This document shows, in pieces, positions 23,551 to 63,098 of a stretch of 64,000 bases of DNA (position 1 is its first letter; each line of letters starts with the position of its first letter). The translations under genes were made by a program, and so were the position numbers. The stretch lies in IMG/VR virus record IMGVR_UViG_3300028864_000017; one strand, written 5' to 3'. This DNA comes from a virus (lineage: Duplodnaviria > Caudoviricetes). Below the pieces are notes generated by a model. That model saw only the letters and a list, made by a program, of their open reading frames with translations, was not told the origin of the DNA and searched no databases.

Positions 23551-24945
23551 ATGATTGAGTTAAAAGGTAAATATACAGACGCTAAAATATTTATAGATGA
23601 AGTTGAAGAAGGAGTCTATACACAAATATACAATGTCATTAACTCAGAAACATCTAATGGGTTGAAAGTCAGACTAATGCCAGACGTGCATGTTGGCTCA
23701 GATATTTGTATTGGGTTTTCCATGGAATTGGGTAAGTATCTCAAACCAAGCACTATAGGTGTGGATATCGGCTGCGGGATGCTAAGTGCTAGATTTTCAG
23801 GTAGAACCACATTAGATTTAGAAAAAATTGATAATCTGATACGTGAAAATGTTCCTATGGGATTTGGTATGCACGAAGATATCAAATTTAAAAATATCCC
23901 TTTTGGTGATGTTCAAGTAATTGCAGATAACTTCATTGTAAAATTTAACGAAAAATTTGGGACATCTTATGATTCTCCATCATACAATGATAAATGGCTA
24001 ACATCTAAATTGAAAGATATTGGAATTGATGAAGGTAAATTTTACAAATCTATTGGTACATTAGGAGGTGGTAACCACTTTATTGAACTTGGTAAGTCAG
24101 ATAAGACTAATGATTATTGGGTAACAGTCCACTCTGGGTCAAGAAACTTTGGACTTAAAATTGCGGAATACTGGACTAAAGTTGCAAGAGGTAAAGTATT
24201 TGTTGCAACCAAAGAATATAACATGGAATTGGATGACATTACAATGAATACTTATCCTAAATCTGATATTGATAAAAAAATAAAAGAATTAAGGACAAGA
24301 TACAGTCTTAATATTGACAAAGAATATTTAGATGGTGAGTATCTTATTGGATATCTATTTGATATGATTTTTGCTCAACAATATGCTCTATGGAGTAGAA
24401 AAACAATGTTATCATTGATAAAAAAAGCATTGAATATCAAAAAGTTTGATGAAGAAATTCATTCAATACATAACTATGTTGATTTCAAAGATTTTATCAT
24501 AAGAAAAGGTGCAATCTCATCTTATGTTGGTGAAAAAATGATTATACCATTCAATATGAGAGATGGAATACTTATATGCGAAGGTAAATCAAATGAAGAT
24601 TGGAACAACTCAGCACCACATGGGTCTGGTCGTTTGATGTCAAGATCAAAAGCAAAAGAGTCAATTGATTTAAAAGATTTTCAGAAAGTAATGAAAGGTA
24701 TATATTCAACATCTGTATGTAAAAGTACAATTGATGAATCACCATTTGCTTACAAAAACTCTGATATGATTGAAAAAGCTATCGAGCCTACTGCATTAAT
24801 TCTTGATAAAATAAAACCAATCTTAAACATAAAAGATAAATCTGAAGGTACATCTTGGAAAGATAAGAAAGAGCAAAAAAAGAAAGATAAGCAACGTAAC
24901 AACGAAAGAAATGAAGTTTCTTATCAAAAGATGAAAAAATTCTAA
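23551..24945 (+). CDS. rtcB: RtcB RNA ligase
   Basis: MPDVHVG, GVDIGCG, GTLGGGNHFIE, VHSGSRN, IHNY, SAPHGSGR, DESPFAYK. Confidence 0.95.
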   Translation: MIELKGKYTDAKIFIDEVEEGVYTQIYNVINSETSNGLKVRLMPDVHVGSDICIGFSMELGKYLKPSTIGVDIGCGMLSARFSGRTTLDLEKIDNLIRENVPMGFGMHEDIKFKNIPFGDVQVIADNFIVKFNEKFGTSYDSPSYNDKWLTSKLKDIGIDEGKFYKSIGTLGGGNHFIELGKSDKTNDYWVTVHSGSRNFGLKIAEYWTKVARGKVFVATKEYNMELDDITMNTYPKSDIDKKIKELRTRYSLNIDKEYLDGEYLIGYLFDMIFAQQYALWSRKTMLSLIKKALNIKKFDEEIHSIHNYVDFKDFIIRKGAISSYVGEKMIIPFNMRDGILICEGKSNEDWNNSAPHGSGRLMSRSKAKESIDLKDFQKVMKGIYSTSVCKSTIDESPFAYKNSDMIEKAIEPTALILDKIKPILNIKDKSEGTSWKDKKEQKKKDKQRNNERNEVSYQKMKKF

Positions 24946-25851: not shown

Positions 25852-27738
25852 ATGGGAAAAATTATTGGAATTGACTTGGGTTCATATAACTCAGCAGTAT
25901 CTATTGTAGAAGGTGGACAAACAATTGTCATACCTAATTCAGAAGGATCAGTATCAACACCATCTGTTGTTGCATTTGATGTGAAAACAGGAGAAATTAA
26001 AGTTGGTGATGCAGCTAAAAGGCAAGCAGCATTAAATCCAAAAAACACAATTTTTAATATCAAAAGACTTATTGGTAGAACTTATGACGAAGTTAAACAT
26101 CTAAAACGTCCTTATGACATTGTAGATAATAATGGTAAAGCTGCTGTAAAAATTGGAGATAGAATATATTCACCAGAAGAAATATCTGCAATCATTCTTC
26201 AAAAAATGAAAAAAACAGCAGAGGATTATCTTGGAGCAAATGTAGAAAGTGCTGTAATAACAGTACCAGCGTATTTTAATTCAGATGAAAGAAGTAGCAC
26301 AAAAGTAGCAGGAGAAATTGCTGGATTAAAAGTAGAAAGAATTATATCAGAACCAACTGCTGCTTCATTAAACATAAAAAATGAAACTGATAAATTATAT
26401 TTTATAATAGATAGTGGTGGTTGTACATCAGATTTTAGTTCAATTTCAATTGAAGATGGCTTATTTGAAGTAATAGCAACAGATGGTAGTTTAGATCTTG
26501 GAGGTAATTTAATTGATGATGCACTTGTTAATTACATTTCTGATGATTTTTTAAAAGAATCAGGAGTAGATATAAGAAAAGATCCTATGGCTCTTCAACG
26601 TGTCACAGAAGCAGCAGAAAAAGCAAAAATTGAGTTATCTAATGTTACACAAACAGAAATCAATTTACCTTATATTACTGCAGTTGACGGAACGCCAAAA
26701 CATTTAGTTAAAACTATAACTCGTGCCAAATTTGAACAATTAATTCAATTTTATGTTGACGAAACAATGAAATTAATTAAATCATCAATTAAAAAAAGCA
26801 ATAAGAATATAAGTGATATTGATGAAATTGTTCTTGTAGGAGGTAGCACAAGAATACCATATTTAGTAGATAACATTGAAAAATATTTTGGTAAGAAATC
26901 TAACAAGTCTCTTAACGCTGATACTGCCATAGCATCAGGGGCTGCTATACAAGGATCCGTTCTTGCTGGAGATACAACTGACATATTATTACTTGATGTT
27001 ACAGCGTTGAGCTTCTGTATTGAAACCATGGGTGGTGTATCAACTAAAATGATAGAAGCAAATACTACAATACCGACAAGTAAGTCACAGGTATTCAGTA
27101 CGGCTTCGGATAACCAACCAAGTGTCCAGGTTAATGTTTGTACAGGAGAAAGACCTATGTATGTAAACAACAAACACTTAGGTACATTTTCACTTGATGT
27201 TCCACCTGCTCGTAGAGGTACACCACAAGTAGAAATCACATTCAGCATTGATAGCAATTCTATTCTAACAGTCAAAGCTGTTGATAAAGCAACTGGAAAA
27301 TCCAATGATATTAGAATTGAAGGTAAATCATCGTTAACAAAAGAAGAGATTGAAAGAATGAAGAATGAAGCTGAACAAAATGCTGATTCAGATAAAAAAG
27401 AAAAAGAGAAAGTTGATAAACTTAATCAAGCAGATTCTATGATTTTTCAAACAGAAAAACAAATTGAAGATTTTTCTGATAAGTTAACTGAAGAAAACAA
27501 AACTGAATTGAATTCTAAGCTTGGTAATCTTAAAGAAGCTCACAAAACTCAAAATGTTGATACTATTGATAACTGCATTAAAGAATTGAATGATTCTTGG
27601 CAAAATATTAGTTCTAAGCTTTATGAAAAATCTCAAAATGAGTCAACAAATGATTCTAATCCAACAAATGAAACTCAATCACCTAATAAAGATGATTCTG
27701 AAAATGTGACAGACGTAGATTTTGAGGAAGTAAAATAA
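25852..27738 (+). CDS. dnaK: Hsp70/DnaK chaperone, divergent
   Basis: IIGIDLG, AVITVPAYF, LVGGSTRIP, ETMGG, DNQPSV, PPARRGTPQVEITF, C-terminal DVDFEEVK. Confidence 0.95.
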   Translation: MGKIIGIDLGSYNSAVSIVEGGQTIVIPNSEGSVSTPSVVAFDVKTGEIKVGDAAKRQAALNPKNTIFNIKRLIGRTYDEVKHLKRPYDIVDNNGKAAVKIGDRIYSPEEISAIILQKMKKTAEDYLGANVESAVITVPAYFNSDERSSTKVAGEIAGLKVERIISEPTAASLNIKNETDKLYFIIDSGGCTSDFSSISIEDGLFEVIATDGSLDLGGNLIDDALVNYISDDFLKESGVDIRKDPMALQRVTEAAEKAKIELSNVTQTEINLPYITAVDGTPKHLVKTITRAKFEQLIQFYVDETMKLIKSSIKKSNKNISDIDEIVLVGGSTRIPYLVDNIEKYFGKKSNKSLNADTAIASGAAIQGSVLAGDTTDILLLDVTALSFCIETMGGVSTKMIEANTTIPTSKSQVFSTASDNQPSVQVNVCTGERPMYVNNKHLGTFSLDVPPARRGTPQVEITFSIDSNSILTVKAVDKATGKSNDIRIEGKSSLTKEEIERMKNEAEQNADSDKKEKEKVDKLNQADSMIFQTEKQIEDFSDKLTEENKTELNSKLGNLKEAHKTQNVDTIDNCIKELNDSWQNISSKLYEKSQNESTNDSNPTNETQSPNKDDSENVTDVDFEEVK

Positions 27739-46291: not shown

Positions 46292-47329
46292 ATGACAAAT
46301 AATATAGCGTTAACGTATGATGATATTCAACTTATACCATTTTATAGTGAAGTAGAACATAGAAATAAAATTTCATTAACAACAAAACTATCTACAAATT
46401 ATGAGTTGATGATACCATTGGTAGCATCACCTATGGATACCGTTTGTGAGCATGAAATGGCGTTTAAAATGTTTCAATTAGGAGGAGTAGGATGTATTCA
46501 TAGATTCATGACTATTGAAGAACAAGTTGATGAAATCAAAAAATTAAAAAAATTAATTGATTATAGTTTATATAATCCTTTTATTAATGTACAGAATATT
46601 CCAATAATGGCATCAGTAGGCTCAAATGGAGATTTTTTAGAAAGGTCTAAATCATTAATAGAATCTGGAGTAAATGTAATTCTTATTGATGTTGCTCATG
46701 GACATCACATAAATGTCAAAAAAGCGATTAAAGAAATAAAAGGATTGAATTTAGGAGTGGATATAATTGCAGGTAATATTGCAACTGCAGAAGCCGCAAT
46801 TGATTTGCAAAATTGGGGAGCTGATGGACTAAGATGTGGTATTGGTGGCGGAAGTCTTTGTACAACTAGAATCAAGACAGGATTTGGTGTTCCAAATGTT
46901 ACAAGTTTAATAGAAATTTTAAATGTTGCAAAAGTACCAGTTATGGCTGATGGTGGAATTAGAACAAGTGGAGATATATCAAAGGCTCTTGCATTAGGTT
47001 CATCTACTATTATGTTAGGCTCACTATTAGCTGGAACAGAAGAATCACCAGGAAAGGTTATAGAGAGTCCTAATGGCTTATATAAACGATATAGAGGCTC
47101 TGCATCATTAGAAACAAAAACTGTTCATGGTCAAGCGGAAAGAAATGTGGAAGGAGAGTCAACAACAATTCCATTTAAAGGAGGAGTCAAATTTGTAATT
47201 GAAGGATTAATAAACGGTGTTCGTTCTGCATTATCTTATGGAGGTGCAAAAAATTTATCTGAATATCACCCTAAATGGTATCAAGTAACAAATGCTGGAA
47301 TTGCTGAAGCAAGACCACATTTATTATAA
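46292..47329 (+). CDS. guaB: IMP dehydrogenase / GMP reductase family protein without CBS domains
   Basis: LTYDDIQLIP, ASPMDTV, IDVAHGH, GIGGGSLCTTR, ADGGIRTSGDISKALA, YRGSAS, VEG. Confidence 0.9.
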   Translation: MTNNIALTYDDIQLIPFYSEVEHRNKISLTTKLSTNYELMIPLVASPMDTVCEHEMAFKMFQLGGVGCIHRFMTIEEQVDEIKKLKKLIDYSLYNPFINVQNIPIMASVGSNGDFLERSKSLIESGVNVILIDVAHGHHINVKKAIKEIKGLNLGVDIIAGNIATAEAAIDLQNWGADGLRCGIGGGSLCTTRIKTGFGVPNVTSLIEILNVAKVPVMADGGIRTSGDISKALALGSSTIMLGSLLAGTEESPGKVIESPNGLYKRYRGSASLETKTVHGQAERNVEGESTTIPFKGGVKFVIEGLINGVRSALSYGGAKNLSEYHPKWYQVTNAGIAEARPHLL

Positions 47330-50462: not shown

Positions 50463-50604
50463 TATAAAAAATAATATAGTATAAAAAATAACCTTTTTTT
50501 CTTAATTGAAAAGAAAGGTTATTTTTATAAAAATAAGATTATAAACATTTTGTAAATTGATAATTTTTTATTACTTTTATACTCCAAATTAAAAATAATT
50601 GAAT

Positions 50605-50835
50605 ATGAAATATAAAGTAGATTATTACACAAGCACTGGTACAATGTCAGACAATGATTTCATAGGTATATTTAATACTCCTAAAGAAGCCAGTGATGCA
50701 AAAACAGAGTACATAAAAGTGTATATGGGAGAATCAAAAGAAGAATATTGTGAACTAAACGAATGTGATGAAGAAGAATATTATGATGAATTAAAAAATT
50801 ATGAAAATTCAATAGTCATTGAACCAATATTATAA
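50605..50835 (+). CDS. Acidic hypothetical protein
   Basis: MKYKVDYY follows a TAnnTTTA promoter variant. Confidence 0.6.
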   Translation: MKYKVDYYTSTGTMSDNDFIGIFNTPKEASDAKTEYIKVYMGESKEEYCELNECDEEEYYDELKNYENSIVIEPIL

Positions 50836-50863
50836 TTTTTATTTATTTAAATAATAAGTTTAG

Positions 50864-51015
50864 AAACATTTGGTAGATTAAAAACTTTTTATTACTTTTG
50901 TACTATCATATTAAAAGTAGAAAAAAATGATAGTTTTTCATTAATATAAAAAAAAGATTGAAAAATGTTTGGTAGAATGAAAACTTTTTATTACTTTTGT
51001 ACTATCATATTAAAA
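50864..51015 (+). promoter_or_regulatory. Tandem duplicated Bacteroidota sigma70 promoters upstream of the tRNA locus
   Basis: Two ~50-bp copies: TTTG (50869)-20-TACTTTTG (50893) and TTTG (50968)-20-TACTTTTG (50992). Confidence 0.8.
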
Positions 51016-51113
51016 GAAAATAAAAAATAGAAAAAAATGACTTTTTTTCTATTATATATAACAAAGAATAAACTTTATAGAAAATAAAAACTAATATAAA
51101 AAAGCAAAACAAG

Positions 51114-51203
51114 ATGTATCGTAATCTATATATAAATGAGGAAATGTGTAACAACGAAATTATCAATAATATTGATGATACATCCCAATTGACTGAGAAA
51201 TAA
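51114..51203 (+). CDS. Putative attenuator leader peptide 1 (29 aa)
   Basis: MYRNLYINEEMCNNEIINNIDDTSQLTEK; last codons contain an antiterminator strand. Confidence 0.7.
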   Translation: MYRNLYINEEMCNNEIINNIDDTSQLTEK

Positions 51204-51262
51204 AATTAAGGCTTATGCCTATAATTATAAATCCAGTCAATTAAAAAATGACTGGATTTTTT
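51187..51262 (+). terminator. Attenuator 1: terminator with competing antiterminator
   Basis: Stem 51229-51239/51249-51259 plus T-run; AATTGACTG (51187-51195) complements CAGTCAATT (51234-51242). Confidence 0.8.
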
Positions 51263-51265
51263 GTT

Positions 51266-51499
51266 ATGAAAAAAGTTAAAGAAAATAAAATTGATGAATC
51301 AGCAGAAGTAGTAAATAAAATTCAAAAAAATTATGATGAACTGAAAAGGAAATCTGATAGAACTGAAAAATTTATAATGTTTGCTGATAAAATCAAAATT
51401 GATTATAGTGAAGTTCCTAAAACAGAAAAAGGAATGAATTCAAAAGCAAAAGAGATTGCTAAGAAACTTTATAAGAAAATAGATAAAGAAAAAGATTAA
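51266..51499 (+). CDS. Hypothetical basic protein downstream of attenuator 1
   Basis: Probable start MKKVKENK. Confidence 0.6.
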   Translation: MKKVKENKIDESAEVVNKIQKNYDELKRKSDRTEKFIMFADKIKIDYSEVPKTEKGMNSKAKEIAKKLYKKIDKEKD

Positions 51500-51506
51500 A
51501 ATATAT

Positions 51507-51578
51507 CGCGCGGTAGGGAAGTGATACCCCGCAAGGCTCATAACCTTGAGAACGCTGGTTTGAGTCCAGCCTGCGCAA
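51507..51578 (+). tRNA. tRNA-Met(CAT), initiator-like
   Basis: C1:A72 mismatch; caagg-CTCATAA-ccttg; T arm gctgg-TTTGAGT-ccagc. Confidence 0.8.
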
Positions 51579-51583
51579 CAATT

Positions 51584-51664
51584 AAAAAACTATATTGAAC
51601 AGCACCTCACTGGTAATGGGGACAATGCGAGTACACTAGCAGCTAAACTCAAAATAGTTTTTTT
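51584..51664 (+). ncRNA. tRNA-like structured element with Thr(GGT)-type anticodon hairpin
   Basis: Outer stem actat.ttga/tcaa.atagt, ACAGCA, cctca-CTGGTAA-tgggg; no canonical D or T arms. Confidence 0.45.
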
Positions 51665-51691
51665 AAAAATAATAAATTAAAAGTAAATATC

Positions 51692-51826
51692 ATGAATAAC
51701 ATTAATAACATATACAGCATTTATCGCAATTGTAATATTAATTACAATATGGAAGAGATATGTATTAATATGATTAATAATGATTATATTAATGATGATG
51801 AAAATAATGTAGGAAGAACTGGATAA
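51692..51826 (+). CDS. Putative attenuator leader peptide 2 (44 aa)
   Basis: MNNINNIYSIYRNCNINYNMEEICINMINNDYINDDENNVGRTG; no K, L or F. Confidence 0.75.
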   Translation: MNNINNIYSIYRNCNINYNMEEICINMINNDYINDDENNVGRTG

Positions 51827-51890
51827 GTTAAAAAATTATTATGTGAATAATAAAAAAACTCAGTTCTTAAAAATAAGAACTGAGTTTTTT
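51814..51890 (+). terminator. Attenuator 2: terminator with competing antiterminator
   Basis: Stem CTCAGTTCTT (51859-68)/AAGAACTGAG (51875-84) plus T6; AAGAACTG (51814-21) complements CAGTTCTT (51861-68). Confidence 0.82.
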
Positions 51891-51933
51891 ATTTTTAAAT
51901 GCTCTTTGAAATACTAGATAATGAATAATAAAT

Positions 51934-52016
51934 GGGAGTAATGCTCAAATTGGTCAGGCGCAAAACTGTAAATTTTGTAACCTTTTAGGTCGTCAGTTCG
52001 AATCTGGCTGCTCCCA
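51934..52016 (+). tRNA. tRNA-Tyr(GTA)
   Basis: caaaa-CTGTAAA-ttttg, long variable arm, TTCGAAT. Confidence 0.9.
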
Positions 52017-52026
52017 CAAAAAACAC

Positions 52027-52098
52027 GATGCGTTCGTATATCGGAAAGTACTCTAGGTTTTCAACCTAGCAAGATGAGTTCAACTCTCATACGCATTA
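52027..52098 (+). tRNA. tRNA-Glu(TTC)
   Basis: gatgcgt/acgcatt; ctagg-TTTTCAA-cctag; atgag-TTCAACT-ctcat. Confidence 0.85.
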
Positions 52099-52106
52099 CA
52101 AAAAAT

Positions 52107-52179
52107 GGGATATAGGTCAAATGGTTAAGATGTCACCCCGTCACGGTGCACGGAGCGAGTTCGAATCTCGTATATCCCG
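52107..52179 (+). tRNA. tRNA-Asp(GTC) with C33
   Basis: gggatat/atatccc; loop CCGTCAC; TTCGAAT. Confidence 0.85.
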
Positions 52180-52202
52180 CTTATTATCAAAAAATTAAAA
52201 AT

Positions 52203-52290
52203 GCATTGGTTGCTTTAGTCGGTCGAAAAGTCTGGTCTGTTAAACCAGTAAGAGTAATCTTCAACGTAGGTTCGAATCCTATCCAGTGCG
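52203..52290 (+). tRNA. tRNA-Asn(GTT) with long variable arm
   Basis: gcattgg/ccagtgc; ctggt-CTGTTAA-accag; aaga-GTAA-tctt extra arm. Confidence 0.85.
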
Positions 52291-52296
52291 CAAAAA

Positions 52297-52368
52297 GGGA
52301 GTGTAGCTCAAAGGTAGAGCGTTTCGCTGTTAACGAAAGTGTTGGGATGTCGCAATTCCCCACTCCCG
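52297..52368 (+). tRNA. tRNA-Asn(GTT) with atypical T loop
   Basis: gggagtg/cactccc; tttcg-CTGTTAA-cgaaa; T loop ATGTCGCAAT lacks TTC. Confidence 0.8.
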
Positions 52369-52448
52369 CGAATAAATGATTAACTTTAAACTTTAATCTT
52401 TTTTAATATTATATATTTTTATATATACAATAAAAATATAAATAAATT

Positions 52449-53273
52449 ATGGAAAGCATTAAAACTAAAATATTATCATTAAGAAAAGAAGGAAAAACAT
52501 ACAATGAAATATCAGAATTATTAAATTGTTCAAAAGGTACAATATCTTATCATTGTAAAAAATTATATAATAATATTGAATTAAATAAAAAAAACACAAA
52601 ATTATCAAATTTAAAAAAATTAAAAAATATACCAAATATAGATTTTGGTGATGAGATATCTGATGAGATTTTTAAAAAAGTTATTGAATATCGAATAAAT
52701 GGTAATACATATGAAGAAATAATAGAAAAAACTAAATTATCTTTAGATAAAATTAAAAAAATATGCAGATTAAATAATATCAATGATGGTAATTATAAAA
52801 AAAATAATTATTGTAAAATATATGAAAACGTTAATAATGATGACGTTATTGAAATGCAAAAATACTATGATGAATGTAAAAGTACAAGAAAAGTATCTAA
52901 AAAATTCAATATTGGTAGATATCAAATATCTAAAATTTTAATTATAAATAAAAAAGAAAAATTATCTAAAGAAGAGTATAAAATAAAAAGAAAAAATGAT
53001 ATTGTAAATAATGTTATTAGTTGGAGAAAAGATAAAAAAAGGAAACTTGTTGAATATAAAGGAGGAAAATGCGAAAGGTGTGGATATGATAAATGTATAG
53101 ATGTATTTGATTTTCATCATAAAGATCCTACTCAAAAAGATTTTGGAATAAGTGCAAAATCTTATTCATATGAAAGATTAAAAAAAGAAGTTGATAAATG
53201 TATGTTAGTGTGTAAAAATTGTCACACAGAAATACATTATGAAATAAAAAATAAAAATGGTTCTGGCGCATAA
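52449..53273 (+). CDS. HTH plus HNH endonuclease (homing-endonuclease-like) inside the tRNA array
   Basis: N-terminal HTH repeats; CERCGY ... FDFHHKDP ... KCMLVCKNCHTEIH. Confidence 0.88.
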   Translation: MESIKTKILSLRKEGKTYNEISELLNCSKGTISYHCKKLYNNIELNKKNTKLSNLKKLKNIPNIDFGDEISDEIFKKVIEYRINGNTYEEIIEKTKLSLDKIKKICRLNNINDGNYKKNNYCKIYENVNNDDVIEMQKYYDECKSTRKVSKKFNIGRYQISKILIINKKEKLSKEEYKIKRKNDIVNNVISWRKDKKRKLVEYKGGKCERCGYDKCIDVFDFHHKDPTQKDFGISAKSYSYERLKKEVDKCMLVCKNCHTEIHYEIKNKNGSGA

Positions 53274-53344
53274 CGGCTGGTGTACCTGACTGTCACTCAG
53301 GCTTCTCGTAAGGGATATAGGGAATTCGACTTTCCTCAGAACCG
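53259..53344 (+). tRNA. tRNA-Asp(GTC) with long variable arm
   Basis: ggttctg/cagaacc; cctga-CTGTCAC-tcagg; tctc-GTAA-ggga extra arm. Confidence 0.85.
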
Positions 53345-53354
53345 CAAAGATAAT

Positions 53355-53436
53355 GGAAATATCGCATAGTGGCAATTGCAACTGACTGTAAATCAGTTCT
53401 TTCACAAGTTCGTGGGTTCGAGTCCCTCTATTTCCA
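53355..53436 (+). tRNA. tRNA-Tyr(GTA)
   Basis: ggaaata/tatttcc; actga-CTGTAAA-tcagt; TTCGAGT. Confidence 0.9.
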
Positions 53437-53443
53437 CAAAAAT

Positions 53444-53517
53444 GACCGAGTGCCCGAATGGAATAAAGGGATAGTCTGCAAAACTATATTGTGTGGGTTC
53501 GAGTCCCACCTTGGCCT
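53444..53517 (+). tRNA. tRNA-Cys(GCA)
   Basis: atagt-CTGCAAA-actat; gtggg-TTCGAGT-cccac; U73. Confidence 0.88.
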
Positions 53518-53529
53518 CAATGAACATTA

Positions 53530-53601
53530 TGCCGAAGCTTAGTGGAAAAGAGATTTCTCTCATAAGGAAATCCAAATGAGTTCGAACCTCATATTCGGTA
53601 C
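53530..53601 (+). tRNA. tRNA-CAT (Met or Ile2)
   Basis: tttct-CTCATAA-ggaaa; atgag-TTCGAAC-ctcat; acceptor register slightly irregular. Confidence 0.75.
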
Positions 53602-53667
53602 AGAGTTTATTATTATGACTAGTATCATACTAATAGTATGTTATGATTAATAAAAATAAACTAAAAT

Positions 53668-53741
53668 AGTCTTGTATATCAGTCGGTTAGATTGTCATCC
53701 TGATAAGATGGAGGTCGTGAGTTCAAGTCTCACCAGGACTA
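53668..53741 (+). tRNA. tRNA-Ile(GAT)
   Basis: agtcttg/caggact; tcatc-CTGATAA-gatgg; TTCAAGT. Confidence 0.9.
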
Positions 53742-53752
53742 CTAAATAACAT

Positions 53753-53829
53753 TGGTGAATATACCCTCTGCCTGATAAGTAGTAGAAAGGTTAATTGGTC
53801 ACATGTGGGTTCAATTCCCACTTCACCAA
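53753..53829 (+). tRNA. Non-canonical D-arm-less tRNA-Ile(GAT)-like RNA
   Basis: tggtgaa/ttcacca; only 7 nt before the anticodon arm ctgc-CTGATAA-gtag; 21-nt insert with AAGGTTAATTGGT; gtggg-TTCAATT-cccac. Confidence 0.75.
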
Positions 53830-53842
53830 CAATAAAAAACAC

Positions 53843-53921
53843 ACTGTCGTATCCCCACTGGCTTATATCCAGTCATTAACAAGGTAATTGGTGTATGAGG
53901 GTTCAAGTCCCTTCGGCAGTA
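53843..53921 (+). tRNA. Non-canonical D-arm-less tRNA-Ile(TAT)-like RNA
   Basis: actgtcg/cggcagt; 7 nt then actgg-CTTATAT-ccagt; 23-nt insert with AAGGTAATTGGT; gaggg-TTCAAGT-ccctt. Confidence 0.75.
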
Positions 53922-53934
53922 CAATAAACAACAA

Positions 53935-54059
53935 GGTAGTGTAACTCAAAAGCACAAAGGGGATAATTATGAAACTAGAATAAATAATTTGAAACGAGCG
54001 AAGGATAGAGTGCTGGGCCGATGTCTCAGAAGTTGATGGTTCGAGTCCATCTGCTACCA
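53935..54059 (+). tRNA. tRNA-like gene (GAT) with ~55-nt D-loop insertion
   Basis: ggtagtg/tgctacc; D stem actc/gagt; ctggg-CCGATGT-ctcag; gatgg-TTCGAGT-ccatc. Confidence 0.65.
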
Positions 54060-54067
54060 CAAAAATA

Positions 54068-54151
54068 TGTGATTAATATGACACAGGTAGTCATGTCAGT
54101 ATGTAAAACTGATCTCTTCGGAGGTTGTGGGTTCGAGCCCAACTAGTACCA
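54068..54151 (+). tRNA. Degenerate tRNA-Tyr(GTA)
   Basis: atgac/gtcat D stem, tcagt-ATGTAAA-actga, ctc-TTCG-gag, TTCGAG; acceptor stem poorly paired. Confidence 0.55.
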
Positions 54152-54219
54152 CAAAAAATATTTAATACAATTTATATTATTTATATAATTATCACTATTT
54201 ATATATAAATAAAAAAAAT

Positions 54220-54759
54220 ATGAATAAATTAGTCGAGAAATTTAAATCATCACAAGAAAAATTTGCAATATTTTTATCAGATTCATTATCTAGTATGACA
54301 ATGTTTTGGATAATTACAATATTAGTTATATTTCCATTATTTTTTAGTCAGCCATCAGGTTTAGTTGCATGGATGCAATATTTAGTATCAGTTTTCTTTC
54401 AAGGAGTAGCATTACCAGTTTTAGGATATATTGCTAAGATAAGTGGAAGTAGAACTGATGCAATAATATCAAAGATTGAAGAATTATCCGAAAAAATAGA
54501 AGCTATGACAGAGCATATAAATGTTGATGTTGATGACATAAAAACTCATGTAGTTGATATTGATATTGAATTAAAAGATGTAGATACTGATGTTAGTGAC
54601 ATAAAAAGTCATGTTGATGATATAGATATTGAGTTAAAGTATGCTGACACAGACGTTAATGAAATACAAAATCATGTTGATAATATACAAGAAGATTTAA
54701 AAAATGTAGACTTTGACATAAATAACATTCAAGATAATATAGAAAAAGAAAAAAAATAA
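54220..54759 (+). CDS. DUF1003-like membrane protein with 21-aa coiled-coil repeats
   Basis: 2 TM; repeats DVDTDVSDIKSHVDDIDIELK; TATATAAATA upstream. Confidence 0.65.
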   Translation: MNKLVEKFKSSQEKFAIFLSDSLSSMTMFWIITILVIFPLFFSQPSGLVAWMQYLVSVFFQGVALPVLGYIAKISGSRTDAIISKIEELSEKIEAMTEHINVDVDDIKTHVVDIDIELKDVDTDVSDIKSHVDDIDIELKYADTDVNEIQNHVDNIQEDLKNVDFDINNIQDNIEKEKK

Positions 54760-54830
54760 TTTACATTAAAATTATCATTGTATAAAAATTTTAATATAAT
54801 TTGTACTATTTATACATAAAGACAAATGAT

Positions 54831-55211
54831 ATGGATAATTTAGTAGAAAATATTAAGTCGGAGCAAGAAAATATATCATTAAGAACTGATGATATTATTA
54901 CAAAGATAGAAGAGTTATCTAAAAAAATAGACACAATAACTGCACAAATAACAAATGAAGTTAGTGAAATAAAAAATATTATTTATGACATACAACAAAA
55001 TATAAAAAATGTTGATACTGATGTTGATAATATAGTAGGTAATGTAGGTGAAATAAAAGGAGAATTAAAGGATGTTGATTCTGATATTAGTAAAATCAAA
55101 GATGATATTAAAAATGATAATTTGGAAGATATTAAAGACAGTGAAGAATTAAAAAACGCAATAAAAAAGAAATCTGGTGGAATTACATATAATGTAGTTA
55201 TTCAACAATAA
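54831..55211 (+). CDS. Soluble paralog of the 54220 repeat domain
   Basis: RTDDIITKIEELSKKI; NVDTDVDNIVGNVGEIKGELK. Confidence 0.65.
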   Translation: MDNLVENIKSEQENISLRTDDIITKIEELSKKIDTITAQITNEVSEIKNIIYDIQQNIKNVDTDVDNIVGNVGEIKGELKDVDSDISKIKDDIKNDNLEDIKDSEELKNAIKKKSGGITYNVVIQQ

Positions 55212-55274
55212 AAAATTTTTAATATTGAATATACAAAAAAATTGTGTATCTTTGTTTTTATTTAAAAAATCAAC

Positions 55275-55760
55275 ATGAAATACGGAATTTACACATTAGT
55301 AATTGAGAATTATATCACTAAAAATTTACCTCTACTAAGTACATTTTCATTAAAAATGGAATTCGGATGGGGTAATGGTTATATATTAATACCTAATAAT
55401 CATCCATCATATGGAGTTTCATATGATGATATGAATACAATAAGTGTACATGGAGGATTAACATATGGTCAATTTTTTGATTCTAAATCATTTTTAGAAT
55501 GGATTGATAATTTAGAAATTGATGGTGATGTAACAATAGATAATTATAAAAAATTAGATAATTATTGGATGATAGGATTTGATACTAATCATTATGGAGA
55601 TAGTATTGAAAAATGTTCTAAAGAATATGTAATACATCAATCTGAATATTTAATGGAACAATGTTTAAATAATAAAATAGAAGGAGTTATGAAATACAAA
55701 TTAGCATACTCAAGAAAAGAAAAATTAAAAAACATTAATCAAGTCATTAAAAATAAATGA
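55275..55760 (+). CDS. Conserved phage hypothetical protein with RxxKL tag
   Basis: WGNGYILIPNNHP, VHGGLTY, IGFDTNHYGD; RKEKLKNI; promoter at 55247-55254. Confidence 0.7.
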   Translation: MKYGIYTLVIENYITKNLPLLSTFSLKMEFGWGNGYILIPNNHPSYGVSYDDMNTISVHGGLTYGQFFDSKSFLEWIDNLEIDGDVTIDNYKKLDNYWMIGFDTNHYGDSIEKCSKEYVIHQSEYLMEQCLNNKIEGVMKYKLAYSRKEKLKNINQVIKNK

Positions 55761-55774
55761 GTAAATACTTACAT

Positions 55775-55846
55775 GTGCTTATAGTGTAATGGATAACACG
55801 TATCACTACGGATGATGAGTTGAAGGTTCGAGTCCTTCTAGGCATA
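55775..55846 (+). tRNA. tRNA-Arg(ACG)
   Basis: gtgctta/taggcat; tatca-CTACGGA-tgatg; gaagg-TTCGAGT-ccttc. Confidence 0.9.
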
Positions 55847-55921
55847 CAAAAAAATCAATTTGGACTAATTTAATTTTATATATAAGTTAATTAATAAACT
55901 TAAAATTAAAAAATTAAATAA

Positions 55922-56218
55922 ATGAATAAAATTGAAGAAATTTTCAAATCTTGGAGAATATCATTCAACCCAAATGATGAGCAATCAGATCTTGCAAGTA
56001 AAAGAATTGAAATATGTGATGGGTGTGAGCATAAAGAGATGTTAAATATAGGAGAGATTGATATATTTGCAAGATGTAATTTATGTGGCTGTGCGTTAAA
56101 AGCAAAAATATTCACACCTAAAACATATCAAGATATCGGAGGAACATGTCCTATTCAAAAATGGACTGAAGTTGAAAAAGAGCATTTAGATTCAATTGAA
56201 AATGGAAAGAAAATTTAA
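55922..56218 (+). CDS. Cys-rich (Zn-binding) phage protein
   Basis: RIEICDGCEH ... CNLCGCALKAK ... CPIQKW. Confidence 0.7.
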   Translation: MNKIEEIFKSWRISFNPNDEQSDLASKRIEICDGCEHKEMLNIGEIDIFARCNLCGCALKAKIFTPKTYQDIGGTCPIQKWTEVEKEHLDSIENGKKI

Positions 56219-56477
56219 AATAGGTGACATTGTTATTTGTTCTGAAATTTGCAATGACATTAAAGAATATCCTTGGTATCATAAAATTCCTATGTCAATT
56301 ATTGGATTTTCAGAATATGGTAATTGTTACTATACTGATTATTGGGACTCTGATAACATAGGAATGATGACAAATAAGACAATAAATGGAGTAACTTATG
56401 AAAGTATTTCAGAAGAATGTTTAGAGTTTTCTATTAAGCACACAAGAAAAGAGAAATTAAAAAAGCTTCATATTTAA
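56196..56477 (+). CDS. KOW/SH3-like protein with RxxKL tag
   Basis: KFKIGDIVIC ... TRKEKLKKL. Confidence 0.65.
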   Translation: MKMERKFKIGDIVICSEICNDIKEYPWYHKIPMSIIGFSEYGNCYYTDYWDSDNIGMMTNKTINGVTYESISEECLEFSIKHTRKEKLKKLHI

Positions 56478-56492
56478 ATATGAAGCTTTTTT
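56458..56492. terminator. Bidirectional terminator
   Basis: aaaaagcttcatat-ttaa-atatgaagctttttt. Confidence 0.8.
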
Positions 56493-56498
56493 AATTTT

Positions 56499-57539
56499 TT
56501 AATTTTTACCATGAATAGGACAGTTATCATCAATTAAACATTTTTTTGAAGGATAAATTTCAATATTATTAATTTTTGGACATGTACATCTTGGAGTTTG
56601 CCAAAATTTATGAAATAATATATCTTCATCTTCTCCGTAAAGAGTTTGCATATTAAATTCAATATTAGTTAGTTTTTTATAATATTTTTTTATACTACCT
56701 TCACAGTTATAAATATCATCATAAATCTTCAATTTATTTAACAAACAATCTTTCAATTTTGATAAATTTTCATTAATTTGAATTCTATTCTCATCAACTC
56801 TACTTCTAAACTCTTTATATTTAACCAAATATTTATCCTCTTTTTCATATTTGTCAATCAAATCATTTAGTGTAGAACTTTTCAATTCTTTATATTCTTC
56901 AGGATTAATATCTTCGTCTTCAATACATTTTTCTAGCTCTTCAAATCTTTCTTTTTTATCAAGAGGACCACCATGAAATGTTATTTCACTAAATATTGCG
57001 TTATACAAATCAAATAATGTAAATGTTTTTTCTCCTAACTCAAATTTTGAATCTTCTTCATTTTTACCCTCTATCAATTTATTATAATCATATACAGTGA
57101 AATTTTTATTGAGTGAAATGTTTAATTTTTTTAAATTATTAAGAGATACAAAGTCTATTGAATAAAAATCAGAATTGTTATTTGATACGCCGTGAATTGT
57201 AGATGTTACATTTAATTCATTATCATACTTATTACAGCTCCAATTAACTTCTAGATAATCCATATCAAGTTTGTCAGTTGGATTATTTTCAATTTCTTGT
57301 AAAAATGGATCAATATAATATCCATCTAATGATGAATAAAAAATATCATTAAAATCATTAACATTATGTGATATAATATCAAACAATCTTTTAAATATTA
57401 AATTCTCACCTAATTCAACAGTATCTGACAAAAAAAGTAATATATCGTTTGGGTCAATAACATCAGCATTATCTATTGAATCTAGGTATAAAATTGATTC
57501 TTCGCTATAATAGATTTTATTGTTTGTTATGGTTATCAT
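56499..57539 (-). CDS. Hypothetical protein
   Basis: 346 aa; C-terminal PRCTCPKINN ... CPIHG. Confidence 0.7.
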   Translation of the reverse strand: MITITNNKIYYSEESILYLDSIDNADVIDPNDILLFLSDTVELGENLIFKRLFDIISHNVNDFNDIFYSSLDGYYIDPFLQEIENNPTDKLDMDYLEVNWSCNKYDNELNVTSTIHGVSNNNSDFYSIDFVSLNNLKKLNISLNKNFTVYDYNKLIEGKNEEDSKFELGEKTFTLFDLYNAIFSEITFHGGPLDKKERFEELEKCIEDEDINPEEYKELKSSTLNDLIDKYEKEDKYLVKYKEFRSRVDENRIQINENLSKLKDCLLNKLKIYDDIYNCEGSIKKYYKKLTNIEFNMQTLYGEDEDILFHKFWQTPRCTCPKINNIEIYPSKKCLIDDNCPIHGKN

Positions 57540-60107: not shown

Positions 60108-63098
60108 TTATCTATGAAAGCTAGATGCTGGTGCTGGCTTATCTAAAGAATTTTTAATTGATTTTAATAATTTTCTAACCTCAGATATTTCAGAATAAAA
60201 TTGAGGTTCAATTTTAGTGACAACTACCATAGGTTCTTTTGCTTTTTTCTCATCTTCTATTTTATCGGATCCTGTTAAGTTATTAAATGCATTACCAATT
60301 GTTTTCATTAAATTAGGAGTAGAATCAGAGTTACCATAAATAGTTTTTATTGTATCTTGATTATCTTTTAATTTATCAAGAACTATTTGCAATTTTGCAT
60401 CATCAACAGCACTCAATAAAACAACACTAGCTGAAACTTTTGATAAATTATCAAATGTTGTAATATCTTTCAAAGAATTAGATAAATCAACAAACGAGTC
60501 TGCCAATTTATGTATTTGAACACTTTTATCTGGCATATTATCTAATAATTTAACTAATTTATCAAATCCTTGAATATAAAGTTCTGATAAAGGATTTTGT
60601 GTTGCATTTGACAATAATATTAAAGATGGAAATAGCATACCTAAATTATTTGTAAAATTCATCACATCATTTATATTTACTGCAAAATCATTTATATTTT
60701 TAGCCATTGAAACTATAAAATTATTAAAATTTGTTAAATAAGTTGCATCTGGAATATTAGTAAAATTACCGTCTGATAATATATTTGATGCTAAAACTAT
60801 TGAATTTGATGATTCTCTCACAAAATCTGTTATTGTCATTTTATTACCACCAACATTAAATAATCTAGCTATAATATCCATTATTCCTATATCATTAACT
60901 TTAGAATATGCTGTAGCCATAGATATAAGAAAGCTACCAATTCCTTCTGAATATTCTTTAGTTGGATGTCCAGCATTATTCCAATTTGTAGAATCTAATA
61001 TTGTTTTTGCTGTAACCATAGAAGAAGCAGCGTTTTTAACAAATACATTGAAACTTTCAGGATTCACACTAAATATATTAGCGCCTGCGATAGATACTAT
61101 TGCATATGTTTCAGCGAATGATTTTAATAATTCACCAACTCCATCAGCATAATCTTTAGATGGATAACTACCTGCTGTACTCCAATTAACACCAGATAAT
61201 TCTGAATTTGCAGTTTTCATTGCTCCTGCTGCTGATATTACAAAATCATTAAAACTTTGGGCTTTGGTACCAGTCAAAAATGAAAATACTTTATTAATTC
61301 CTTGCAATCCTGTAATAGCAACATAAGCAGCAGCGAATAATGTGAGTGCTGTACCAACTCCCAATGACCATTCCAATTTTGGATAACCACTATCCCATTT
61401 ACCACTTTGTAATAATAAAGATACTTCAACCATTGTATTTGCTATTTTAATTAAAGGGTTTTCTTCACCAGTAAATATTTTTGATATCGCTCCTGCAATA
61501 CTACCAGCGGATGCTATCACCATAGCAGAACTAAACGCAATTAATGATCCACCTACTCCTAATGCCCAATCCAAAGGTGGATATTTAGTATAATCACCAG
61601 TTGGTATTATATGTGAAACAAGAACCATAATTCCAGCAACAGCAAGAATAGCAGCAAGACCAATCCAGAAAAATGGATTAGTTCCAGCAAATAATCCAAC
61701 TCCAGCAGCAATAAGAGCAAATCCTCCAATTGCTAATCCAGCAGATAATGTCCACATAAAATCAGGTGCTATCATATTAGTAGGCAATGATGAAAATATA
61801 TTAGCAACGACTACAATAGCAATAGATGTTAATATACTTCCTGCTATACCAACAAGCAAATCAGAAAGAGATAATTTACCTAACAACATAACTGTAGGTG
61901 TAAAAATTAATATTGATATACCCATTGCTAATGTACTTAATACAACATTTAATGGATCAGAAAGAGATATAAATTCACTAAAAATTATACTAGATTGTGT
62001 AATAGCAATAGACATTGGCAAAATCATTAATGTTCCAGTAATAACATCTTCCAATTTCATTTTACCTAAAAAATAAATTGCGGGAGTAAAAAACAGCAAC
62101 GATAATCCAATAACAGCACTACCAATTAATAAATCTAATGGATTACTAATTGGAACAAATCCTTTAAATATTTCACTTGCTAAAACTATACCTCCTGCTA
62201 TTAATGGTATCATAAAAGGCAATGCCAACATTTCTTTATATGTCACATTTTTTAATCCTTTTAATGCTAAAGAAATTCCAATAGTTGCTACACCCAAAGC
62301 CAATCCTATCATACCTACAGATAATACTTGCATAAAAGATATATTTTCAACCCCTTTTAAAATATGAGAAGATTTTACAATGCCCCATGCTATCATTGGT
62401 AATATTAAAGGTAGCAATGGTACCATTTTTAATGATGAACTACTAATTTTAGACACTGATTTCATTATAAGATACGCAGCTAATCCCATTGCGGTACTAA
62501 TTAGAAGAATTGACATTGATTGCATTACTGAAAAGTCTGGCATTCCTTTTAATATGTAGCCAGACAATGCTAAGCCAATTGCCATCAATGGCATAATAGA
62601 TGAAATTAACAGTATATTAGTATATTTTAAATTTTTTATGTCCGCTATTTTACTATATGCCAATGACATAGCTATCATAGATACTGATAACGCGACAACT
62701 GATAGAAAATCTACTTTTCCTATTATTTTAAATGCCAATCCTAACGCTAAAACTCCTGCAGCAATTAAAACAACAACTTTTATACCATCAACAATCTTAT
62801 TTTTGTTCTTAGGATCTTCTATGCTACCAAACATTCCAGATTCTTTTTGCTTCTTTATTCCATCAATTTTCTGTAATATTTTTTCATTATCAGTTTTGAC
62901 ATTTTTAAATCCGTCTTCTGTAATTTTCTGTAAATCCTTTACTACATGACTCAAATCATTCATAGGAGTCTTTAAAAAATCATTAACGACGTCTGATTTG
63001 CCAGTTTTTTGCTGTTCTTTTAATATTTCCACAATTTTCTCTAATGCGGTAGTGAATGTATCTAATGATTCTATGTATTTTTCATCTATTTTAGACAT
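60108..63098 (-). CDS. Tape-measure-like repetitive amphipathic/membrane protein (996 aa)
   Basis: Repeated hydrophobic helical units and YP....GVG units; size and composition. Confidence 0.55.
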   Translation of the reverse strand: MSKIDEKYIESLDTFTTALEKIVEILKEQQKTGKSDVVNDFLKTPMNDLSHVVKDLQKITEDGFKNVKTDNEKILQKIDGIKKQKESGMFGSIEDPKNKNKIVDGIKVVVLIAAGVLALGLAFKIIGKVDFLSVVALSVSMIAMSLAYSKIADIKNLKYTNILLISSIMPLMAIGLALSGYILKGMPDFSVMQSMSILLISTAMGLAAYLIMKSVSKISSSSLKMVPLLPLILPMIAWGIVKSSHILKGVENISFMQVLSVGMIGLALGVATIGISLALKGLKNVTYKEMLALPFMIPLIAGGIVLASEIFKGFVPISNPLDLLIGSAVIGLSLLFFTPAIYFLGKMKLEDVITGTLMILPMSIAITQSSIIFSEFISLSDPLNVVLSTLAMGISILIFTPTVMLLGKLSLSDLLVGIAGSILTSIAIVVVANIFSSLPTNMIAPDFMWTLSAGLAIGGFALIAAGVGLFAGTNPFFWIGLAAILAVAGIMVLVSHIIPTGDYTKYPPLDWALGVGGSLIAFSSAMVIASAGSIAGAISKIFTGEENPLIKIANTMVEVSLLLQSGKWDSGYPKLEWSLGVGTALTLFAAAYVAITGLQGINKVFSFLTGTKAQSFNDFVISAAGAMKTANSELSGVNWSTAGSYPSKDYADGVGELLKSFAETYAIVSIAGANIFSVNPESFNVFVKNAASSMVTAKTILDSTNWNNAGHPTKEYSEGIGSFLISMATAYSKVNDIGIMDIIARLFNVGGNKMTITDFVRESSNSIVLASNILSDGNFTNIPDATYLTNFNNFIVSMAKNINDFAVNINDVMNFTNNLGMLFPSLILLSNATQNPLSELYIQGFDKLVKLLDNMPDKSVQIHKLADSFVDLSNSLKDITTFDNLSKVSASVVLLSAVDDAKLQIVLDKLKDNQDTIKTIYGNSDSTPNLMKTIGNAFNNLTGSDKIEDEKKAKEPMVVVTKIEPQFYSEISEVRKLLKSIKNSLDKPAPASSFHR

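Follow-up and report, generated by a model that had tools for sequence, protein, structure and literature searches.

A short leader open reading frame (ORF) and the terminator that follows it, at positions 51692-51890 of a stretch of viral DNA, very probably gate a phage transfer RNA (tRNA) operon by ribosome-mediated (leader-peptide) transcription attenuation; judged from the sequence, we put the probability of this reading at about 85%. The stretch, here called the window, is 64,000 nucleotides (nt) long and is part of the 143-kilobase (kb) IMG/VR virus record IMGVR_UViG_3300028864_000017 (Duplodnaviria; Caudoviricetes), which has a CheckV completeness estimate of about 20%. We refer to the element as A2. 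The attenuator cassette is found at the same position in at least five related huge-phage contigs.

An initial annotation of the window, made from the sequence alone, had described a 44-codon ORF followed by a terminator and then by a tRNA array. Every one of these features was present at the position given for it, as follows.

51692-51826, plus strand: leader ORF A2, 44 codons with a TAA stop; the sensor core is codons 2-39 (51695-51808)
51814-51821, plus strand: A2 anti-strand AAGAACTG, which repeats the 3′ arm of the terminator within the last ORF codons
51853-51890, plus strand: terminator 2, 17 pairs and a T-run; the G+C core is 51858-51885 and the T-run lies 3′ of it
51934-55847, plus strand: tRNA array predicted to be gated, 11 tRNA genes called with ARAGORN and Rfam
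First part of the array, plus strand: Tyr 51934, Glu 52027, Asp(GUC) 52107, Asn 52203, Asn(GUU) 52297
Middle of the array, plus strand: Tyr 53355, Cys 53444, CAU tRNA 53531
Last part of the array, plus strand: Ile(GAU) 53668, Ile-like(GAU) 53753, Arg(ACG) 55775

The composition of the A2 ORF is restricted to an unusual degree. Our recount agreed exactly with the annotation, which had reported that 39 of the 44 residues (N14, I8, Y4, D3, E3, M3, C2 and R2) share the identities of the array tRNAs and that K, L and F are all absent; these three residues make up 9.6, 8.0 and 5.1%, respectively, of the long ORFs of this genome. Within codons 2-39, 37 of 38 consecutive codons belong to the set MEDNYCIR, giving a score of 33.5 bits for that set (scores here are maximal-segment scores against the genome amino-acid background). 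The annotation had also matched an Arg codon, CGC, to the array's tRNA-Arg(ACG), and the codon was located at 51725-51727 and the tRNA at 55775. As background we took every six-frame ORF of 30-80 codons that the 143-kb record contains. A2 had the highest MEDNYCIR fraction of these 320 ORFs (0.88, with the runner-up at 0.73; mean 0.40, standard deviation 0.10), and it was the sole ORF free of K, L and F among the 156 ORFs of at least 40 amino acids. Its start context is A-rich and resembles that of the genuine genes of the same phage, which lack Shine-Dalgarno sites.

The last codons of the ORF copy the 3′ arm of terminator 2 and can therefore pair with its 5′ arm as an antiterminator. As the annotation had claimed, AAGAACTG (51814-51821) is complementary to CAGTTCTT (51861-51868), the core of that 5′ arm; the 3′ edge of the anti-strand lies 3 nt ahead of the stop codon. 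Folding, which had been proposed as a check, recovered both alternative structures. Terminator 2 folded at -25 kcal/mol (z -6.7) and was the structure that formed when the whole region was folded together. When the 3′ arm was omitted, which mimics the nascent RNA, the 51814-51821:51861-51868 helix was the minimum-energy fold (-11.3 kcal/mol, z -4.2). Anti-strand duplexes were evaluated across the 143-kb record by pairing the 5′ arm of each of 61 terminator-like hairpins with the sequence 12-75 nt upstream. The two strongest belonged to a sister hairpin at 51229 (-11.7 kcal/mol) and to A2 (-10.5 kcal/mol), and the remaining 59 averaged about -3.6 kcal/mol, with a best value of -7.7 kcal/mol.

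Relatives were recovered through a 996-amino-acid protein (encoded at 60108-63098) and through a motif of the 5′ untranslated region (UTR) described below. Identity to the protein was 86% in G001 (330 kb), 84% in G002 (141 kb), 52% in G003 and 39% in G004 (501 kb). The A2 ORF, spacer and terminator of G001 and G002 are approximately 95% identical to those of the window. Both indels are of 3 nt and keep the reading frame, and all four replacements in the sensor (N>D, I>M, S>R and N>I) stay within or enter the set. The context 5′ of A2 differs, with two tRNA-Met genes in G001 and an inserted HNH gene in G002. Positional counterparts of A2, located 3′ of tRNA-Met and 5′ of the remaining array, were found in three more distant contigs.

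L097: GCCAGTC stem; ORF tail T-T-G-stop
L117: CCCAGTTC stem; ORF tail R-T-G-stop
G004: GCCAATCC stem; ORF tail W-I-G-stop

The terminator stems differ among the three, and the anti-strand in the last ORF codons matches its own stem in each. Among GenBank phages, megablast and blastn returned tRNA and HNH matches only and no collinear relative, and an exact 31-nt tRNA-Tyr pattern had no match in a search of viral contigs.

Whole-record tRNA scans showed that the tRNA genes of the relatives are grouped in operons of fixed amino-acid sets, and a short ORF with a terminator was found ahead of each operon when the upstream regions were read. About 25 further cassettes were recovered in viral contigs with the 5′-UTR motif as bait. 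The operons fall into five classes, which jointly span all 20 amino acids; each is listed with its typical leader core.

Class A: tRNA set M, E, D, N, Y, C, I and R(ACG); leader core YRNLYINEEMCNNEIINNIDD
Class B: tRNA set K, F, W, S and H; leader core SKHSSKSFKFWSHS
Class C: tRNA set Q; leader core IQQQQQ
Class D: tRNA set L; leader core NLLLLNLLLQ
Class E: tRNA set P, A, G, V, T and R(UCU); leader core TATTTTAPVGGRPV

The annotation had suggested looking in related phages for cassettes whose peptide composition co-varies with tRNA content, and such cassettes are what the five classes provided. All 28 leaders scored 12-38 bits for the set of their own operon and at most 9.4 bits for any other set, so that the matrix of leaders against arrays is diagonal. 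One candidate leader ahead of a mixed array in Lak-B1 (MK250020) was too ambiguous and was excluded from the counts. Tandem arrangements also occur: the Gln-operon leaders L015 (G001) and L021 (G004), with five Gln codons in a row, have two tandem terminator hairpins after them, and L042 carries two complete class B attenuators in tandem.

The correspondence extends to individual codons. For the most complete class B arrays, every codon of the leader core is readable by the array anticodons, and class B leaders vary their synonymous codons (AAA with AAG; AGT/AGC, TCC, TCA and TCG) as though every isoacceptor were to be probed. In Gln leaders, four CAA codons and one CAG stand ahead of arrays with two to three tRNA-Gln(UUG) genes and one tRNA-Gln(CUG), and Leu leaders use TTA, TTG, CTA and CTC where the array anticodons are taa, caa, tag and aag. 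Arg is split between classes, with CGT/CGC accompanying tRNA-Arg(ACG) in class A and AGA accompanying tRNA-Arg(UCU) in class E. Such codon-family matching argues that the leaders sense the decoding of particular tRNAs and not amino-acid pools.

A regrouped genome displays the same correspondence. LR756501 is the 735-kb genome of Al-Shayeb et al. 2020, and that paper places genomes larger than 634 kb in a Bacteroidetes-infecting clade, "Mahaphage" (PMC7162821). Its tRNAs are grouped differently, and its leaders follow the new grouping. All of its Arg tRNAs are in the P/A/G/V/T array, and the leader of that array has adjacent AGA and CGC codons; Met, Ile(UAU) and Glu tRNAs are joined to Gln, and the matching leader reads I, M, Q and E; the I/C/D/N/Y array is preceded by a leader with the core YNDYCIND, from which Glu is absent.

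Anti-strands and terminators likewise match within cassettes. Among 25 cassettes, the duplex of each anti-strand with its own terminator averaged -12.4 kcal/mol, compared with -6.4 kcal/mol for the arms of other cassettes, and none of 20,000 permutations of the pairing reached the observed sum (p < 5e-5). The first tRNA of most class B, D and E cassettes begins 5-25 nt 3′ of the T-run, which leaves no room for a promoter; transcription of these arrays must therefore cross the terminator. The leader ORFs of these three classes extend 14-36 nt beyond the anti-strand.

We also examined the region upstream of A2, which forms the head of the operon (operon A).

50869-50902, plus strand: promoter P1, Bacteroidota type (TTTG ... 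TACTTTTG), from its sequence pattern
50968-51001, plus strand: promoter P2, a tandem copy of P1, from its sequence pattern
51023-51060, plus strand: 5′-UTR motif, an A-run/T-run palindrome (51027-51052) and then ATATATA
51114-51203, plus strand: leader ORF A1, 29 codons; sensor core YRNLYINEEMCNNEIINNIDD, 17.2 bits for the set MEDNYCIR
51186-51199, plus strand: A1 anti-strand, in the last ORF codons; duplex of -11.7 kcal/mol with the 5′ arm of terminator 1
51229-51263, plus strand: terminator 1, from its fold
51266-51499, plus strand: gene for a 77-amino-acid Lys/Glu-rich protein (the ORF list begins it at 51248, within terminator 1)
51507-51579, plus strand: initiator-like tRNA-Met(CAU), between A1 and A2; its sequence shows a C1 x A72 mismatch
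51584-51665, plus strand: stem structure of about 80 nt, a long A/U-closed stem with a T-run at its end

The source DNA has a G+C content of 24%. The start regions of the phage genes are A-rich and without Shine-Dalgarno sites, and the Bacteroidota promoter pattern TTTG-N17-23-TAnnTTTG has 20 matches in the window, compared with 8.1 (standard deviation 2.7) in shuffles. The host therefore probably belongs to the Bacteroidota. The 34-nt pattern shared by P1 and P2 has exactly two matches in the window, where none is expected, and promoters of the P1 type also precede the leaders in L014, L018, L019 and L021.

The A1 cassette (51114-51263) and the promoters lie 5′ of A2, so A2 is the second of two serial attenuators. 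The antiterminator of A1 folded at -24.8 kcal/mol (z -6.9), and A1 is kept in G001, G002, G004, L097 and L117. The attenuator reading of the initial annotation is thus supported by cassette, pairing and compositional covariation, but A2 does not stand as the sole gate; A1, about 580 nt upstream, had been overlooked. A C1 x A72 mismatch is typical of bacterial initiator tRNAs. As the tRNA-Met gene sits between the attenuators, it would be subject to A1 alone, and the elongator tRNAs to both attenuators. A homologue of the 77-amino-acid protein occupies the same place in G002 and G004; searches of Pfam, PHROG and Atlas gave no lead for this protein. The stem structure at 51584-51665 is absent in G001 (which has the second tRNA-Met instead) and in G002 (which has the HNH gene instead), and could be either a remnant or a terminator of low strength.

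In the mechanism that we propose, transcription would begin at P1 or P2 (50869 and 50968) and cross the A1 and A2 switches serially. The codons of the A2 sensor, for Asn, Ile, Tyr, Asp, Glu, Met, Cys and Arg (CGY), are those read by the tRNAs of the array. If the sensor were read fast, the ribosome at the end of the ORF would mask or unwind the anti-strand, the terminator would fold and the polymerase would stop before the tRNAs. A stall within the first 33 or so sensor codons would leave 51814-51821 free to capture 51861-51868, permitting readthrough into the array. Shortage of any tRNA of the set would switch the operon on and sufficiency would switch it off; as the regulated product is the tRNA set itself, the loop would close on decoding capacity. 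Slow decoding might stem from phage codon demand, from host tRNAs being lost or cleaved, or from charging; the trigger proposed in the initial annotation, uncharged or cleaved host tRNAs, is one candidate among several. We infer that ribosomes translate the A1 and A2 ORFs and stall on them, and that readthrough is under control; on the sequence evidence, each tRNA set is probably made only when its codons are decoded slowly.

A broader proposal is tentative, and we would place the odds against it: that huge phages of Bacteroidota run an autonomous, closed-loop tRNA economy in which five multivalent leaders partition the 20 amino acids, each signalling how fast its codon set is decoded and gating the corresponding operon, and operon A is double-gated around the initiator tRNA. 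In its strongest version this would be an inducible counter to host tRNA cleavage or depletion, whether by defence nucleases or by phage shut-off of the host. The RtcB tRNA ligase encoded in the window would fit an inducible answer to anticodon nucleases.

Among other explanations, the one that survives best, although we consider it improbable, is that A2 is an ordinary small gene with an ordinary terminator ending an upstream unit (the 77-amino-acid protein gene, tRNA-Met and the small ORF), and that the array has a promoter of its own at 51894-51922 or in the TTCTTTGAAATA motif. A sigma-70-like TTTAAA-17-GATAAT does occur at 51894-51922, and the stretch 3′ of terminator 2 is kept in G001, G002, L097 and G004. 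However, sigma-70-like sites are present at chance level (54, against 56.9 in shuffles), and a pattern search of the window found no host-type TTTG...TAnnTTTG site between 51001 and the array. A separate promoter would also leave unexplained the covariation of anti-strands and the codon-level tracking in five classes, and in most sister cassettes the tRNA follows the T-run too closely to leave it room. Given the chance frequency of such sites, the Bacteroidota-type promoters of the phage and these sister cassettes, we rejected the 51894-51922 site as unlikely to be a promoter.

Less probable still is that the small ORFs encode trans-acting peptides, acting for example on synthetases, tRNA-modifying enzymes or ribosomes, with a composition that reflects this function. 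The ORFs are indeed kept as ORFs with in-frame indels, and the leaders of classes C, D and E resemble one another at the N terminus (M-[KN]-N...N-I-M). Within a class, however, residue order drifts while composition is kept, and the C-terminal LTG, RTG, WIG and LIG are dictated by anti-strand nucleotides that co-vary with the terminator. A peptide function would also not require synonymous codons to track the array anticodons, as they do. Finally, a chance ORF in an A+T-rich spacer, or a decayed AAT/ATT repeat, beside an unrelated terminator might be suspected in a genome of such base composition, where ATTAAT occurs five times in frame and the relatives' indels fall in AAT/ATT runs, but we rejected this as having a negligible probability since A2 is the top outlier of 320 ORFs, its position is kept in L097, in L117 and in G004, where the marker protein is only 39% identical, the class matrix is fully diagonal and the stems co-vary.

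Several observations weigh against reading A2 as an attenuator of the tRNA operon. No anti-antiterminator (1:2) helix was found for A2 in the folds, where the only additional structure was an A/U hairpin within the sensor (51763-51794) that does not involve the anti-strand. An untranslated A2 leader would therefore default to readthrough, unlike trp. The gap between terminator 2 and the first tRNA (Tyr, 51934) is 44 nt and contains a motif, TTCTTTGA(A/C)ATA, that includes a sigma-70-like TTGAAA/TTGACA; this leaves some probability, though a low one, for an internal promoter 3′ of terminator 2. The sensor is impure, with one AGC (Ser) codon, and the class A leader of LR756501 contains K and L, and also CGC though its array is without an Arg tRNA. 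Each leader was chosen among one or two nested candidate ORFs per terminator, and the tRNA calls are incomplete, as several genes detected by Rfam were missed by ARAGORN. A look-up of sequencing runs for 50850-52400 returned no RNA data set. Coupling of transcription and translation in the host is assumed.

The TTCTTTGA(A/C)ATA motif lies just 3′ of A2-type terminators and is kept across distant phages (51891-51930 in the window, about 2440-2480 in L020 and about 6160 in L097). Its role may be in processing or pausing, or it may belong to an internal promoter. Stretches akin to it, GTTCTTTGAAATAA and GTTCTTTAACAT, follow two of the five LR756501 terminators (L146 and L147).

With its thresholds lowered, ARAGORN produced over 100 false tRNA calls, and its calls were accepted only where Rfam matched too; the second Asn(GUU) tRNA was not called by ARAGORN. 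The Rfam scan (cmscan, 50500-56500, E <= 1) returned only tRNAs and sub-threshold noise, with no match in that interval to the His, Trp, Thr or Leu leader families or to a T-box or other riboswitch. The Ile-like GAU gene (53753-53829) lacks a normal D-arm, has a long insertion after the anticodon arm and scored 31 bits in Rfam. The array is broken by an HNH endonuclease gene (52449-53273) and by three ORFs (54220-55760). The endonuclease has an N-terminal helix-turn-helix domain, and a different HNH gene lies between tRNA-Met and A2 in G002; homing endonucleases appear to shuffle the tRNA arrays.

The 5′-UTR motif consists of AAAAATAGAAAAAAA, 8-24 nt and ATATATA, with an A-run/T-run palindrome. 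A degenerate first copy is present at 50914-50950, and the motif precedes the leaders in L014, L018, L019, L020, L023 and LR756501. It is also found in many viral contigs with no tRNAs nearby, sometimes paired about 2.4 kb apart (L033, L060, L106, L126 and L140). As this applies to many of its 107 matches, the motif is not specific to tRNA operons, and those loci (among L028-L141) were left aside. It could act as a promoter specific to the phage or as a stem-loop at the 5′ end.

The window also encodes the RtcB tRNA-splicing ligase (23551-24945), an Hsp70/DnaK homologue (25852-27738) and a GMP reductase/IMPDH-family enzyme (46292-47329). TAG-suppressor tRNA genes (anticodon CUA) are present in the relatives at L017 (G003), L024 (G004) and L151 (LR756501), which suggests TAG recoding in the phages that bear them; those of L017 and L024 have Bacteroidota-type promoters upstream and no leader ORF. 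No tRNA with a CUA anticodon was seen in the 143-kb record.

Enterobacterial attenuators include the multivalent leaders of ilvGMEDA (Ile/Leu/Val) and thr (Thr/Ile) as well as trpL, hisL, leuL and pheL. The phage cassettes share with them a short leader, clustered regulatory codons and a terminator 5′ arm with an alternative upstream partner, and in both the position of the ribosome would decide the outcome. The enterobacterial systems control biosynthetic enzymes, whereas the phage cassettes would control tRNAs, the decoders themselves. A phage leader covers up to eight amino acids, five leaders partition all 20, and the synonymous codons follow the isoacceptors of the operon. Further differences are that the anti-strand lies inside the ORF (and in classes B, D and E the ORF continues for 14-36 nt beyond it), that the cassettes are phage-borne with Bacteroidota-type promoters, that A2 has no detected 1:2 helix and that no Rfam leader family matched. 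Operon A also differs from trp-type leaders in having two switches in series.

Two other systems act on the translation apparatus. In pheST of E. coli, the pheM leader attenuates phenylalanyl-tRNA synthetase. As proposed for the phage cassettes, it is an attenuator over a component of that apparatus that answers the decoding of its own codons, but its target is a synthetase, and it is a chromosomal system for a single amino acid. T-box riboswitches work without an ORF, by binding uncharged tRNA directly. As would the phage cassettes, they read tRNA status through a terminator/antiterminator switch ahead of translation-related genes, whereas the phage cassettes are ORF-based and no T-box was detected at 50500-56500.

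Serial short ORFs have a precedent in the Salmonella mgtCBR leader, where each of two such ORFs is proposed to determine which stem-loops form and thereby whether the operon is transcribed (PMC3641672). Both of those ORFs lie in one leader, respond to different signals and serve a virulence/transport operon (PMC3641672). Operon A instead has two complete attenuators with similar sensor sets, which bracket a protein gene and an initiator-like tRNA. A term search of Al-Shayeb et al. 2020 found no mention of attenuators before phage tRNA genes (PMC7162821). The initial annotation was not aware of attenuators over phage tRNA arrays, and our full-text literature searches likewise returned no description of tRNA genes, whether phage or cellular, under the control of a leader peptide. 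The type of switch is known; the target (tRNA genes), the logic and the genome-wide partition of amino acids are new.

Transfer RNA genes are usually thought to be controlled at their promoters by growth rate or the stringent response, and phage tRNAs are usually treated as constitutive supplements to codon usage or as spares against host nucleases. If the attenuator reading is true, the cassettes would place decoding capacity under direct feedback control. At about 200 nt, the cassettes are small as well as modular and portable, and synthetic biology could therefore use them to sense tRNA availability; the leaders would be natural reporters of codon-specific decoding speed. The same reading would give a reason for the fixed amino-acid groups in which the tRNAs of these phages are kept, and it opens an old question to testing, namely which factor limits translation in an infected cell and at what point the phage tRNAs become necessary.

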